Virus record (IMG/VR): IMGVR_UViG_2541047121_000027
Length of the DNA: 12,870 nt
Direction: 5' to 3' (one strand)
Origin: a virus
Taxonomy: Duplodnaviria; Heunggongvirae; Uroviricota; Caudoviricetes
The number at the start of each line of letters is the position of its first letter. Position 1 is the stretch's first letter. A model generated the notes under the pieces. It was not told the DNA's origin and ran no database searches. It saw nothing but the letters and a program-made list of their open reading frames with translations. The position numbers and the translations under genes were made by a program. This document shows, in pieces, positions 442 through 10,809 of this stretch.

Positions 442-1602
442 ACAGCCTTTCTTAATGACGGTGGAAACCTGAGCGTCAGGCATTCAACCAGTGGCCTTTT
501 AACCTGGTATTTCACTTACAGGGCCGGAACGGGAAGGGGGGCACCACCGGAACGCATTAAGCTGGGAAATTATCCTGATCTGAGCCTGAAATCAGCCAGG
601 GAAAAAGCCGCCCAGTGTCGCGCATGGCTGGCAGAGGGGAAAAATCCACGTCATGAGCTTAATTACACCGTACAGGAAGCGTTAAAGCCGGTAACGGTTG
701 GCGATGCGCTCACCTACTGGCTTGAGTCGTACGCAAAGGAAAACCGCGTGGATTATGCCGCCCTGAAAAAGCGCCTTAATAATCACGTAATACAGCACAT
801 TGGTGCTATGCCGCTGGATAAATGCGAGCTACGGCACTGGCTGGCCTGTTTTGACCAGGTGGCAAAGCGAACGCCTGTTACTGCCGGATTCTTGCTACAG
901 ACGTGCAAACAGGCGCTTAAGTTCTGCCGGAGGCGGCGCTATGCAATCAGCAACGTTCTTGATGATATGAGTGTGGCGGACGTTGGGAAAAAACCGGATA
1001 TAAGCGAGCGTGTCTTAAGCACCAAAGAACTGGGCGAATTATTGCAGGCACTGGACAAAAAAATATTCTCCCCCTACTACATCGCGTTAATCCGCCTCCT
1101 GATTGTGTTCGGATGCCGGACGGTAGAACTGAGGTTATCGGAGATCAGCGAGTGGGATTTTACCGAAATGCTCTGGACCGTTCCGAAGGAGCACAGCAAA
1201 ACGAAGGTAGCCATATTCCGGCCTATACCGGAAGCAATACTGCCGTTCATCACGCAGCTGGTGGAGCAGAACAGGCACACGGGCTTATTGCTGGGGGAAG
1301 TGAAACAGGAGGCCAGCGTATCGCAGTATGGAAGATTAGCGCACAGGAGGCTTAATCACCCTCACTGGTCACTGCATGACATCCGGCGCACCTTTACAAC
1401 CATGCTGAACGATTTAGGCGTTGATCCGCATGTCGTGGAGCAGCTTACAGGCCACCAGATGCCAGGAATGCAGCGAGTTTATAATCATTCCCGTTATCTG
1501 GATGCGAAACGCAATGCGCTGGATATGTGGACGGAGCGGTTAGGGATACTGGCGGGAACACATGAAAACGTAACCACGCTACCAGTAGCCAGAAGAAAAT
1601 AA
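442..1602 (+). pseudogene. int: P4-type tyrosine integrase, 5' end removed by the IS insertion
   Basis: The frame is open from 442 directly at the IS terminus: ...LNDGGNLSVRHSTSGLLTWYFTYRAGTGRGAPPERIKLGNYPDLSLKSAREKAAQCRAWLAEGKNP..., matching the P4-integrase N-terminal arm-binding pattern (DGGGL...W.FRY...LG.YP..SL..AR). Catalytic motifs are present (GCRTVEL, LHDIRRTF, RVYNHSRY). The first ~12-15 codons and the start codon are missing; the first in-frame ATG is at 748. Confidence 0.85.
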
Positions 1603-1647
1603 TTTTTTTCGTGTTTTTTCAGTATGCGCATACTGGATATGCGAACA

Positions 1648-1697
1648 GATACAACGTGCAACAATGAGCAACAATGTGGAACAACTACGAACAAGAG
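1648..1697. repeat. Five tandem degenerate 10-bp repeats with ACAA phased every 10 bp
   Basis: acaacgtgca / acaatgagca / acaatgtgga / acaactacga / acaagaggcg in the int-alpA intergenic region, preceded by a perfect 14-bp palindrome AGTATGCGCATACT (1621..1634). Confidence 0.4.
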
Positions 1698-1966
1698 GCG
1701 AAAAAGCGTACGGATTTATAAGTAGCTGATTTTTAATGTGTTACTGGTTTTTTATACACTAGCGAATCACTCTTTAAAGAGCGAGAAAAAAGGCATGGAA
1801 CAATATTTTATGCCTTTGTATTAACATGAATTTAAAAGATTTTATTCTTACTTTTTCATTTTCTGTAAATCATACATCCTCAGTATTTGCCATTCATCAC
1901 TCTAGCGGGAACAATACGACACAATAAGACACCTGATGACTCTTTAAGAAACGAAAGGGGGCAATA

Positions 1967-2155
1967 GTGTTAAGCACTGATCGGTTTATACGTGAAAAAG
2001 AATGCGAAAAACTAACCGGCCTTAGCCGTACGTGTCGCTACCGCCTGGAAAAGGCCGGACAATTCCCATCACGTCGTAAACTTGGCGGTCGTTCCGTTGG
2101 CTGGTCTTTATCCGAGGTTCTGGCCTGGAAGGATAGCTGCAAGGCAGTTCATTAA
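1967..2155 (+). CDS. alpA: AlpA-family phage transcriptional regulator (62 aa, GTG start)
   Basis: Translation ...CEKLTGLSRTCRYRLEKAGQFPSRRKLGGRSVGWSLSEVLAWKDS matches the AlpA/MerR-like HTH signature (R..Y.....G.FP...KLG.RSVGW...EV..W). RBS AAAGGGGG lies 5 nt upstream. Confidence 0.7.
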   Translation: MLSTDRFIREKECEKLTGLSRTCRYRLEKAGQFPSRRKLGGRSVGWSLSEVLAWKDSCKAVH

Positions 2156-2300
2156 TCACGCTGGCGGCACACAGCCGCCACACATCAATCATCTGAACAC
2201 AGAGCTATAACCATGAAGATTGAATATACGCCAGAACGTGGGCGGGGATTCGTTCGCCCTGGTGAGACTGGAAAACCACAAAATTGGGGTTTTTCAGGCA

Positions 2301-2329
2301 TAAAAAAAGCGGCCCCGAAATGGAGCCGC
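2301..2329. terminator. Bidirectional intrinsic terminator between convergent alpA and the minus-strand repressor operon
   Basis: GC-rich stem GCGGCC...GGAGCCGCC flanked by AAAAAAA on the plus strand (a T7 tract when read on the minus strand) and CTTTCT downstream. It is stronger for minus-strand transcripts. Confidence 0.5.
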
Positions 2330-2424
2330 CTTTCTGAACAGATAACCCGCTGCGCCTTATGTGTATATGATCCCAAACATAAGCACGGGGATGATAGCCG
2401 CTATCAGGCTGGTGGGCAATGCTA

Positions 2425-2613
2425 TCAGTCTGGTTCAGTTCGTTGCCATACCTGCAATGGGCGCGTTTCCCTGTACTCTTTAAGGAATTGCTCAAGGGCA
2501 AAAGCACATGGCGCGAATCTTTCTGATTCATGCTCTATCTTTCTGCGCCGTCTTTTCCGTGCCGGTGATAATGTTTTGGTCAATTCTTTATCGGTCATTG
2601 TGTTGTCCTGCAT
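2425..2613 (-). CDS. Hypothetical basic protein (62 aa) downstream of the RHH gene
   Basis: ORF MQDNTMTDKELTKTLSPARKRRRRKIEHESERF... on the same strand as the RHH gene, followed by the minus-strand terminator. It has no convincing Shine-Dalgarno and may not be real. Confidence 0.3.
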   Translation of the reverse strand: MQDNTMTDKELTKTLSPARKRRRRKIEHESERFAPCAFALEQFLKEYRETRPLQVWQRTEPD

Positions 2614-2655
2614 AGCAATGCGCCGTAATACCTCACACCACGGCGCTGATAGTTT

Positions 2656-9530: not shown

Positions 9531-9552
9531 GCCGGAGAAATCCGGCTTTTTT
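9531..9552 (+). terminator. Rho-independent terminator, sequence-identical to the one at 6893..6916
   Basis: GCCGGAGAAATCCGGC followed by TTTTTT; the same 22-mer occurs after the perC-like gene. Confidence 0.7.
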
Positions 9553-9553
9553 A

Positions 9554-9601
9554 CGGGTCCTTCCTGGAATTATGGCCCGTTACGGGGCGGCGACCTCGCG
9601 G
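9554..9601 (+). repeat. 48-bp perfect inverted repeat, left copy (cosQ/cosN core)
   Basis: CGGGTCCTTCCTGGAATTATGGCCCGTTACGGGGCGGCGACCTCGCGG; its exact reverse complement is at 10447..10494 (checked base by base). Confidence 0.9.
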
Positions 9602-9640
9602 ATTTTCGCTATTTATGAGCCTTTTCAGGGTGGTGGTGGT
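9554..9640 (+). other. Lambda-type cos site A (cosQ, cosN, start of cosB), plus orientation
   Basis: cosN GGGCGGCGACCT at 9585..9596 with lambda-like flanks: ACGGGTCC...GTTACG upstream and CGCGGATTTTCGCTATTTATGA downstream (lambda left end recalled as GGGCGGCGACCTCGCGGGTTTTCGCTATTTATGAAAATTTTCCGG). Lies directly upstream of the Nu1-like gene, as in lambda. Confidence 0.8.
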
Positions 9641-9729
9641 GGTTTTGTTGTTTGATCTATCTTTATGAATGAAAAGGGAAAGATGCAAGCAATACACCAA
9701 CCTGAAGCAGTAATTAAGTTGGTGTATTA

Positions 9730-10272
9730 ATGAAATCTCATCTGATGAACAAAAAAAACATGGCGAAAAGCTGCCGTGTAAGTGCGACAGCGTTCGACAA
9801 GTGGGGAGTAACTCCCGTTGAGCGTAAAGGCCGTGAGGCGTTTTATGATGTTGCCAGCGTGATAGAAAATAGGGTTAACAATGCAATTAGCCAGCTTATA
9901 AACGACAAAGGCGAGATTGACGATGATGAACTTTTACGAGTCAGGATCAGATTACTGACAGCACAGGCAGAGGCGCAGGAACTTAAAAACGATCGCGATC
10001 GCGGTGACGTGATTGATACTGAGTTTTGCCTGTACGCGCTTTCAAAGCTGGCGAGTCAGATTTCATCAATCATGGACAGCCTCCCGCTTACTATGCAAAG
10101 GAGCTTCCCACAGATTACCCCCGCCATGCTGGACAGGCTTAAAAGGGAAGTGGTTAAAGCCTGTAATGCCAGTGCCAGAGTTGCCGACAACCTCCCACAG
10201 ATACTGGCTGATTACTTGAAAGAAACAACCGGAAACGTACCGGAAAAGTTGCTACAGAAGAAAGGCGAGTAA
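9730..10272 (+). CDS. Terminase small subunit, lambda Nu1 family (180 aa; start could be 9730, 9745 or 9760)
   Basis: RLLTAQAEAQELKNDRDRGDVIDTEFCLYALSKLASQISSIMDSLPLTMQRSFPQI parallels lambda Nu1 RLTRAQADAQELKNARDSAEVVETAFCTFVLSRIAGEIASILDGLPLSVQRRFPEL; the N-terminal region (MNKKNMAKS...FDKWGV...) also parallels Nu1 (MEVNKKQLADIFG...). No strong Shine-Dalgarno at any candidate start. Confidence 0.85.
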   Translation: MKSHLMNKKNMAKSCRVSATAFDKWGVTPVERKGREAFYDVASVIENRVNNAISQLINDKGEIDDDELLRVRIRLLTAQAEAQELKNDRDRGDVIDTEFCLYALSKLASQISSIMDSLPLTMQRSFPQITPAMLDRLKREVVKACNASARVADNLPQILADYLKETTGNVPEKLLQKKGE

Positions 10273-10289
10273 CAGACGCGCAATTATTG

Positions 10290-10494
10290 AACAAAAATGA
10301 GAAAGGATCTGATAATGGCATTTTCTGGCTAAAATGCCTCGTGTCAGATCCTTTCTTTTTTTAATATTTTCATTGTTAAACAGTCTGTTACAGAGAAGAA
10401 GATCGGATCTGACTTTTGCCGGAAAATTCTCATAAACAGATAAAAACCGCGAGGTCGCCGCCCCGTAACGGGCCATAATTCCAGGAAGGACCCG
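10290..10494 (-). other. Lambda-type cos site B, inverted (minus orientation), with R3/R2/R1-like cosB elements
   Basis: Minus strand reads cosQ/cosN (identical 48 bp) then CGCGGTTTTTATCTGTTTATGAGAATTTTCCGG and CAGATCCGATCTTCTTCT (compare lambda R3 CGTTTCCGTTCTTCTTCG), then an inverted-repeat pair GAAAGGATCTGA / TCAGATCCTTTC (plus 10301..10312 and 10344..10355), analogous to lambda R2/R1 (GAAAGGAAACGACAG...CTGTCGTTTCCTTTC). On the plus strand this hairpin plus T7 (10356..10362) also works as the terS terminator. Confidence 0.7.
10447..10494 (-). repeat. 48-bp perfect inverted repeat, right copy (cosQ/cosN core; cosN reverse complement at 10452..10463)
   Basis: Exact reverse complement of 9554..9601. 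Confidence 0.9.
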
Positions 10495-10527
10495 ACGACA
10501 CCAGACTATCAGAGCGATGGGGGCACA

Positions 10528-10809
10528 ATGACAGAAGCCGAACTACTGGGATTAATCCGCCGCGTCGCCGGAATCAGCCAGCAGCATGACGAACAGGCCA
10601 CACAGCCGGACAGCGTGACCGCTGAAAATTATGTGCGTGTTGTAGCGGAAGTGATGCGCCGTGATGGTATAGAACTTAATGGCGTTGATATGCGCAACAT
10701 ACGGAACCGCGTTCTTGAAATGCTGGCCTACAATCGCCGCGTTGAACTGTATCGGGAGAAAGAAAAAATAACGTACCACTGGAAGAAGCCGGAACGGCTG
10801 CGGCGGTAA
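10528..10809 (+). CDS. Hypothetical protein (93 aa), last island gene before the phoQ-proximal junction
   Basis: TGGGGG RBS 5 nt upstream; ORF MTEAELLGLIRRVAGISQQHDEQ...; no recognisable domain. Confidence 0.5.
   Translation: MTEAELLGLIRRVAGISQQHDEQATQPDSVTAENYVRVVAEVMRRDGIELNGVDMRNIRNRVLEMLAYNRRVELYREKEKITYHWKKPERLRR

Follow-up and report, generated by a model that had tools for sequence, protein, structure and literature searches.

The closest described relatives of the locus examined here are Escherichia coli phage-inducible chromosomal islands (PICIs). EcCICFT073, the prototype of the Gram-negative cos PICIs, belongs to a family in which experiments have demonstrated induction by AlpA, the activator of the EcCICFT073 cycle, the function of both cos1 and cos2, and transfer by lambda and phi80 (PMC6092414; PMC6739421); induction, replication and high-frequency transfer were shown for EcCICFT073 only (PMC6092414). 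Table S1 of the same study (Fillol-Salom et al., 2018; PMC6092414) names EcCIRM12579 as a PICI of E. coli O55:H7 RM12579 and gives its size as 11.2 kb, its location as ycfD-phoQ, its attachment (att) core as GGACATATTT and its accessory genes as rdgR and perC. The same chromosomal site is used by EcCIEDL933, also known as Sp7, CP-933C or O-island 51 (OI-51), a capsid-forming PICI (cf-PICI) of strains Sakai and EDL933. Here we analyzed a stretch of 12,870 nucleotides (the window; IMG/VR virus record IMGVR_UViG_2541047121_000027), and we conclude, with a probability of about 0.92, that the island it contains is a copy of EcCIRM12579, a PICI of the EcCICFT073 family, at the ycfD (roxA)-phoQ attachment site of E. 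coli O157:H7.

Identity and boundaries of the island

The DNA of the window is chromosomal and belongs to E. coli O157:H7, with 100% identity to, for example, strains CV261 and FRIK944; in FRIK944, as annotated in RefSeq, roxA (ycfD) and phoQ border the region. When window positions 440-12870 are aligned with O55:H7 RM12579, the two are 99.87% identical over 12,433 bp and differ by 14 substitutions and two 1-bp indels. The island, its att repeats, its gene content, the insertion sequence (IS) in its integrase gene and its two cos sites are all observed directly. A preliminary description of this DNA had taken it for a satellite and, potentially, for a satellite lineage or integration site not yet described. 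The match to RM12579, together with the EcCIRM12579 entry in Table S1 of PMC6092414, refutes the second part of that proposal, and the site itself is shared by EcCICFT073, EcCIRM12579 and Sp7/OI-51. Our literature search found the name EcCIRM12579 in the supplementary table only, with no mention in any main text. Publications already cover the element and its family, the site at which it attaches and, as regulatory cargo, RgdR and PchE, and only the asymmetry of cos1 and cos2, the assignment of a Nu3-like protein and a lineage-restricted IS insertion in the integrase gene are new. At a coverage of at least 80%, the island as a whole was found in 357 of 5426 complete E. coli genomes.

The ends of the island were defined by comparison with the same locus in E. 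coli K-12, which the preliminary description had proposed as a check and which proved to be an empty site: roxA and phoQ adjoin there, 75 bp apart. Aligned by BLAST to the O157 locus, the K-12 junction reveals a 12.5-kb insertion between 10-bp direct repeats of GGACATATTT. The right-hand features are as follows.

11271-11329, plus strand: repeat CGGTGTAGTTAATGGTGTAGTCAATT, a candidate integrase arm-type site, with a second copy near attL (wider O157 locus 10981-11038)
11402-11411, no strand: attR core GGACATATTT, from the K-12 junction BLAST; same core as in PMC6092414 Table S1

The attR core overlaps the phoQ stop codon (11410-11412) by 2 bases, which puts the end of the island at 11401, and attL is placed at about -1121, some 1.1 kb to the left of the window. 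With the att repeats placed by the K-12 comparison, the island extends on both sides past 442-10809, the extent originally proposed; the modules do lie within those positions, but 442 is the junction between the IS and the integrase gene. The island is no part of a larger prophage, since roxA and phoQ flank it directly. A tRNA scan of the window found no tRNA gene, and the island is therefore not tRNA-targeting.

Several further observations concern the arms and the surroundings. The tandem motif GGTGTAGTTAATGGTGTAGT(T/C)AAT recurs close to either end of the island and probably marks arm sites of the integrase; the same 26-mer is given as the att core of EcCIDI14, another PICI (PMC6092414 Table S1). 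The right arm (10810-11401) comprises about 590 bp of non-coding DNA between the last open reading frame (ORF) and attR, is about 87% conserved in EcCICFT073 and contains several hairpins, for example at 10895-10920. An Rfam scan returned nothing in this non-coding arm of roughly 600 bp, its sole match in the window being the ALIL pseudoknot of the IS. Upstream of potB in the same strain (wider locus 1-6000) is an effector-rich stretch, unrelated to the island, with espN, espK, fragments of nleB and gogB, and IS2.

The locus has the sequence features by which Gram-negative PICIs are recognized. It is a discrete island, within the range of about 8-15 kb, at a PICI-specific site with a direct repeat (PMC6092414); an integrase gene, here split, stands at its left end and is followed by a regulator of the alpA family; it encodes its own initiator with an iteron origin directly 3' of it, in an allele unlike the Pri-Rep of CFT073; it carries cos sites of helper type for packaging, with two cosN and conserved cosQ; and the ORF list, Pfam, PHROG and RefSeq revealed no tail, lysis or complete set of head-assembly genes. 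Rpp, the EcCICFT073 packaging factor that redirects the helper small terminase (TerS), is absent here and is not among the criteria listed in PMC6092414. The module order proposed in the preliminary description (integrase, alpA, repressor and operators, replication operon with origin, cargo, head and packaging genes, cos) is borne out by the ORF list, Pfam and RefSeq, with every part present and in that order. Its reading of the locus as a PICI, not a full prophage, likewise agrees with an 11.2-kb element plus a 1.3-kb IS, bounded by a 10-bp repeat, with an empty counterpart in K-12 and without tail, lysis, portal or large terminase (TerL) genes.

Head genes, small terminase and the two cos sites

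The right half of the island encodes a short head and packaging module.

7695-8750, plus strand: homologue of the lambda major capsid protein E (PF03864, E = 5.5e-50; 43% identical to lambda E)
8763-9098, plus strand: homologue of the lambda head decoration protein D (PF02924, E = 5e-18; 36% identical to lambda D)
9111-9524, plus strand: 137-aa Nu3-like scaffold homologue, corresponding to the C-terminal scaffold part of gpC/Nu3 (PHROG 53, tblastn)
9553-9729, plus strand: cos1, with cosQ-like GGGTCCT, cosN at 9585-9596 and a PICI-specific cosB-like stretch
9730-10272, plus strand: full-length TerS of the Nu1 family, 180 aa (PF07471, E = 3e-23)
10300-10494, minus strand: cos2, phage-type, with cosQ, cosN at 10463-10452 and three TCAGATCC(G/T)(A/T)TCT 13-mers

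The homologues of lambda E, D and Nu1 that the preliminary description had recognized are present, at 43%, 36% and 36% identity. Similarity to phages is limited: the best phage match of the E homologue is only 47% identical, and the nearest phage relatives of TerS are 40-44% identical, the best being N15 gp1 at 44%. Such low identity of the E and Nu1 homologues fits published reports of satellite-specific gene pools in PICIs. The 137-aa protein matches PHROG 53 at positions 495-567 of 583 (E = 4.7e-9) and, by tblastn, the annotated Nu3 of PhiR12 and PhiR5_1 (37-39% identity, E = 4e-5). BLASTP against lambda Nu3 gave no match, so the Nu3-like assignment is based on these two comparisons, and through them the module reads as E, D, Nu3-like scaffold and Nu1. 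In EcCICFT073 it corresponds to the 137-aa ORF that follows the decoration gene, probably c1501. No portal, protease or TerL was found among the ORFs or domain matches of the island. The capsid and decoration genes of CFT073 (c1499 and c1500) are explicitly discussed in PMC6092414, where their deletion had no effect on transfer or interference and where transfer was still seen with insertions in c1499 and c1501.

TerS is 36% identical to lambda Nu1 from end to end, from the winged helix-turn-helix (wHTH) at the N-terminus through to the C-terminus, and the C-terminal end of lambda Nu1 is its TerL-binding region. TerS has no similarity to RppA by BLASTP (E = 3.4), and a sequence search of the PDB with TerS and the 137-aa protein produced no meaningful match, RppC and the Nu1 N-terminal domain included. 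The terS cassette is widespread, occurring in 766 of the 5426 genomes, among them Nissle 1917, strains of O26, O111 and O145, and the strain carrying EcCIATCC25922. The TerS-type island is a known and common PICI variant, with no characterization in the literature as far as we found.

The preliminary description had listed cos as a single site; cos is present, but as two inverted sites. Exact copies of the lambda cosN 12-mer GGGCGGCGACCT stand at 9585-9596 (plus) and 10452-10463 (minus), within 76-nt inverted repeats that flank terS, and both cos1 and cos2 retain cosQ, cosN and about 30 bp past cosN. cos1 occupies a lambda-like position, 134 bp upstream of terS, and its similarity to any phage ends about 34 bp past cosN. 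Its cosB-like stretch includes an inverted repeat, AATACACCAAC/GTTGGTGTATT, that abuts the terS ATG. This stretch is nearly identical in EcCIATCC25922, whose TerS is 98% identical with the first 45 residues identical, so that cosB of cos1 and the wHTH of TerS are conserved together in that island, whereas cosB of cos2 differs.

cos2 has a different character. Its three exact 13-mers, at 10412-10400 (minus), 10344-10356 (plus) and 10312-10300 (minus), form an R3-R2-R1 layout, the arrangement described for lambda-like cosB (PMC9026076). Column by column, the site can be aligned with the PhiR5_1 cos and with EcCIATCC25922 cos2. The R motif reads CAGATCC in cos2 of the window and CATGTCG in PhiR5_1 and cos2 of EcCIATCC25922; cos2 specificity thus varies between islands that have terS and cos1 in common. 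When IMG/VR was scanned for the pattern of cosN followed by CAGATCC at exactly the cos2 spacing, 46 loci were returned. At the two that were inspected (contigs of 47-50 kb), a Nu1 gene lies directly downstream on the same strand, and the first of them also has gpA after Nu1 and lysis genes upstream; the cosB of the inspected phages matches R3, R2 and R1 of the island. The comparison stretches were 9409-9614 and 10150-10370 of locus L008, 5295-5526 of L046 and 6314-6510 of L038. Because the alignment with phage cos sites preceding Nu1 and A runs through R3-R2-R1, we conclude that cos2 is a copy of the cos found in real lambdoid phages. Lambdoid phages with a cosB of the cos2 type were found in 221 genomes, in a search made across genomes.

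Integrase, regulation, replication and cargo

The remaining features of the window are listed from left to right.

1-441, minus strand: end of an IS3-family element (HTH_Tnp_1; ALIL pseudoknot RF01497, 94 bits; RefSeq IS3 family transposase; orfA at 60-386)
442-1602, plus strand: 3' part of a tyrosine integrase, codons 24-409 (PF00589, Phage_integrase, E = 8e-17)
1967-2155, plus strand: alpA (PF05930, E = 5.4e-17; same protein accession in EcCIRM12579)
2425-2613, minus strand: 62-aa ORF (PHROG 21027, E = 3e-16; 97% nucleotide identity to its EcCICFT073 counterpart)
2656-2829, minus strand: 57-aa ribbon-helix-helix protein, Arc-like and YlcI/YnfO-like, a candidate repressor (PHROG 228, Arc-like repressor, E = 1.5e-6)
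2826-2872, no strand: two 17-nt repeats, each with the palindrome ATGGTAATTACC, 30 bp apart, candidate operators (repeat search)
2960-3157, plus strand: Icd-like ORF (NCBIfam phage_ICD_like, E = 5e-18)
3150-3362, 3352-3816 and 3809-4042, plus strand: three further coupled small ORFs with overlapping stops and starts
4048-4347, plus strand: RgdR orthologue, DUF4222, 99 aa (PF13973, E = 1.6e-24; 81% identical to Sakai ECs1581, RgdR)
4344-5744, plus strand: replication initiator, helicase of the RepA family (AAA_25; PF13481, E = 2.5e-43)
5743-5935, no strand: iteron-type origin immediately 3' of rep, with six AAGTGAG cores, of which one is inverted and the other five are direct
5945-6196, plus strand: hypothetical ORF
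6193-6603, plus strand: single-stranded DNA-binding protein (SSB; PF00436, E = 9e-16)
6614-6886, plus strand: PerC-family regulator, a PchE allele (PF06069, E = 1e-42; 90% identical to Sakai PchE)
7013-7237 and 7489-7695, plus strand: small hypothetical ORFs (RefSeq coding sequences; the second PHROG 3255, E = 2.5e-46)
10528-10809, plus strand: hypothetical ORF of 93 aa, conserved and the island's last gene (PHROG 1561, E = 2.7e-58)

The IS is 1.3 kb long, its terminal inverted repeat ends at 441, and from that repeat it is probably IS629. It was inserted after codon 23 of the integrase gene with a 3-bp target duplication, AAC, at 442-444, and is absent from the O55:H7 RM12579 copy, whose intact integrase is 99% identical to that of Sakai Sp7. 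The first 23 codons and the promoter lie beyond the IS, outside the window (codons at wider O157 locus 11060-11130), and in the remaining frame the first ATG, GTG or TTG start does not occur before 748, codon 121. The integrase of this copy is probably non-functional, and the copy probably unable to excise on its own; cut off as the gene is from its first 23 codons and promoter, excision would need an integrase supplied in trans. The 404-aa integrase annotated in RefSeq (WP_115448036.1, 388-1602) starts at a CTG within the IS, and this start looks like an annotation artefact. A 120-bp probe for the junction of IS and integrase gene was found in only 56 of the 5426 complete genomes.

In the regulatory region, the ATGGTAATTACC palindromes cover the start codon and the -10 region of the ribbon-helix-helix gene, with a promoter-like site at 2897-2870 on the minus strand. 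The 57-aa product also matches NCBIfam YlcI_YnfO_N, at E = 1.4e-3, under the family cut-off. RefSeq places a plus-strand Icd-like pseudogene at 2213-2806, whereas the CFT073 annotation and the PHROG matches favour two minus-strand genes instead. Rightward ORFs with overlapping stops and starts run from 2960 to 5744, the last of them encoding the AAA_25 helicase of RepA type, and the coupled small ORFs between 2960 and 4042 match PHROGs 340, 2512 and 2196. A 1-bp difference from O55:H7 at 3573 joins ORFs of 80 and 77 aa into the 154-aa ORF at 3352-3816; the fused and split forms are both known as PHROG families (2512 versus 5146 and 24341). The AAGTGAG iterons of the origin exceed chance expectation: six occur at 5745-5932 against 1.13 expected, and none of 200 shuffles reached six.

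RgdR and the PerC/PchE allele are regulatory cargo, RgdR being a regulator of LEE (the locus of enterocyte effacement) and type III secretion (PMC3378721). In the module order, SSB and PerC fill the cargo position. The 93-aa last ORF also occurs in EcCICFT073, EcCIRM12579, EcCIATCC25922 and Sakai Sp7. PADLOC, run on ten ORFs (the unknown ones and Rep), gave no defence-system match.

Proposed cycle, alternative readings and relation to known systems

By homology with EcCICFT073, a lambdoid helper phage would switch on alpA, and AlpA would in turn activate the rightward operon. Int would then excise the island, in this copy with the integrase supplied in trans; the RepA-type helicase would fire the iteron origin just downstream of rep and yield concatemers; and the helper large terminase would cut the lambda-type cosN, with the DNA packaged in helper virions. 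To this we add that the island TerS probably has its binding site in cosB of cos1, which is PICI-specific and directly upstream of the terS gene, and brings in the helper TerL, a step that would replace the Rpp-TerS heterodimer, and that a helper TerS with matching R specificity could use cos2. A heterodimer between island TerS and helper TerS, of the Rpp kind, is possible. For the TerS-type members of the EcCICFT073 family in general (at least 766 of the 5426 genomes), we tentatively suggest, at somewhat less than even odds, a packaging route unlike that of Rpp, in which the island's own TerS is co-inherited with cosB of cos1 and would bring in the helper TerL directly, alongside an exchangeable cos2 of helper type that would match different helpers. 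If this route holds, the E, D and Nu3-like trio could serve to remodel capsids, with a phenotype that escaped notice in EcCICFT073.

Several points weigh against reading the island as a working member of the EcCICFT073 family. Its integrase gene is disrupted, so that the copy may be immobile and its life cycle not running in this strain. Its Rep is a different allele from the characterized Pri-Rep, and comparisons with RppA and RppC indicate that it lacks Rpp, the packaging factor characterized for the family; since PMC6092414 notes terS homologues in some PICIs, a missing Rpp does not exclude PICI membership. In the literature we found neither this element nor any TerS-type PICI as the subject of an experiment, and searching PMC9026076 by term turned up no mention; for this reason the pairing of TerS with cos1 and the use of cos2 by a helper TerS are steps that we infer. 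Two leftward small genes and palindromic sites, with a candidate regulatory role, were found here. Published accounts of Gram-negative PICIs give them rightward transcription only and no clear repressor.

Of the alternatives, the one to which we give a small residual chance is that the locus is a decayed P4-like or lambdoid prophage remnant without a life cycle of its own. The variant region OI-51/Sp7 has been called a highly degraded prophage of P4 remnants (PMC3378721), regions of the OI-51/CP-933C type have historically been annotated as such, the integrase is of P4 type and here interrupted by an IS, and the lambda head module is represented by just four homologues, without portal, TerL or tail genes. 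Decay is, however, difficult to reconcile with an 11.2-kb architecture that is near base-for-base the same in O55:H7 and O157:H7 and conserved gene for gene in EcCICFT073 and EcCIATCC25922, with ORFs, att repeats, origin and cos sites intact. EcCICFT073 was, moreover, induced, replicated and transferred at high frequency (PMC6092414), and the identity of E and Nu1 to any phage homologue, below 50%, fits a satellite-specific lineage and not recent decay. Class tests lead the same way: psu, delta, sid and the alpha primase-helicase of P4-like satellites had no Pfam or PHROG match in the island, the cosN is of lambda type, and the only P4-like features are int and alpA; a lambdoid prophage would have complete modules and about 40-60 kb, compared with 12.5 kb flanked directly by roxA and phoQ.

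Slightly less probable still is a cf-PICI variant in which the E-, D- and Nu3-like proteins form small capsids of the island's own and only the remaining parts come from the helper. In EcCICFT073, transfer and interference were unchanged when the capsid and decoration genes were deleted, and that island was reported in full-size capsids (PMC6092414), even though the island here codes for a major capsid protein, decoration and scaffold-like proteins and TerS, and a true cf-PICI, Sp7/EcCIEDL933, shares the att site and a 99% identical integrase. The genes that define cf-PICIs (portal, protease, TerL, HNH and head-tail connectors) are absent among the ORFs and domain matches. That the satellite lineage is undescribed, or the integration site new, is the least probable of the three readings and very improbable. 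Homologues of E, D and Nu1 beside phoQ are not widely known by name, and no paper text outside the supplementary table was found to contain EcCIRM12579, yet that table (PMC6092414 Table S1) gives its coordinates, size, att core and att gene, the site is common to EcCICFT073 and OI-51/Sp7, and the terS cassette in 766 of 5426 complete genomes includes that of the named EcCIATCC25922.

As a copy of EcCIRM12579, the element matters little as a discovery, being already published: the satellite reading of the preliminary description is upheld, and its suggestion of novelty is not. O157:H7 lineages do, however, differ in what occupies the roxA-phoQ site, with a PICI of the EcCIRM12579 type in some and the cf-PICI Sp7/OI-51 in others (Sakai, EDL933). 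That one site holds different satellites whose integrases are 99% identical implies that replacement or recombination has taken place within the serotype, and the alleles of RgdR and PchE differ accordingly. An effect of OI-51 on LEE expression and on the colonization of ruminants has been shown, and lineages consequently differ in RgdR and PchE alleles and in the mobility of the element. In addition, a TerS of Nu1 type with an asymmetric cos pair constitutes a common packaging variant, of which we found no study in the literature.

Compared with EcCIRM12579, the window copy shares 99.87% identity over the island and flanking phoQ, the same att core and site, and the same RefSeq accessions for AlpA, RgdR, PerC, the major capsid protein, the decoration protein and TerS; it differs by the 1.3-kb IS at integrase codon 23/24, the ORF fusion caused by the indel at 3573, and 14 substitutions. 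With EcCICFT073 it has in common the att site, gene order and size, the alpA, RgdR, SSB, PerC, E-, D- and 137-aa genes and the 93-aa last ORF, and two inverted cos sites flanking a packaging gene. The shared blocks are 82-98% identical in nucleotides, and there are four patches without similarity: the regulatory region, in part; the rep C-terminus and origin (4710-6016 in nucleotide alignment); a short accessory patch after perC; and the gene between the cos sites. The window thus has a RepA-type helicase and another origin where EcCICFT073 has the primase-type Pri-Rep, another ribbon-helix-helix allele, an extra 74-aa ORF, other cosB sequences, and the 180-aa TerS of the Nu1 family where EcCICFT073 has rppA (144 aa).

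Sp7/CP-933C/O-island 51 has the same chromosomal site and the same regulatory and replication layout, with an integrase, RgdR and PchE that are 99%, 81% and 90% identical, but is 15.5 kb long (Sakai locus 2212-17672), encodes protease, portal, adaptor, TerS and TerL in a head module of HK97 type, and is without the E, D and Nu1 homologues. Identity of the island with EcCIEDL933 was considered and rejected, EcCIEDL933 being the 15.4-kb cf-PICI of Sakai and EDL933 at this site. To the lambda head and packaging module the island is related through Nu1 (36%), D (36%), E (43%), a Nu3-like scaffold, the exact cosN 12-mer, cosQ and the R3-R2-R1 of cos2, whereas it is without A, W, B, C, FI, FII, tail, lysis and immunity genes, has the order E-D-Nu3-cos-Nu1 where lambda has Nu1...Nu3-D-E, and carries two inverted cos. 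Lastly, the island is not a member of the family of pac-type Staphylococcus aureus pathogenicity islands (SaPIs), as its packaging is of cos type and not headful, its TerS belongs to the Nu1 family and no Ppi-like inhibitor was identified; the two would nonetheless be alike in principle, in that a satellite TerS, working with the helper large terminase, redirects packaging to the satellite.

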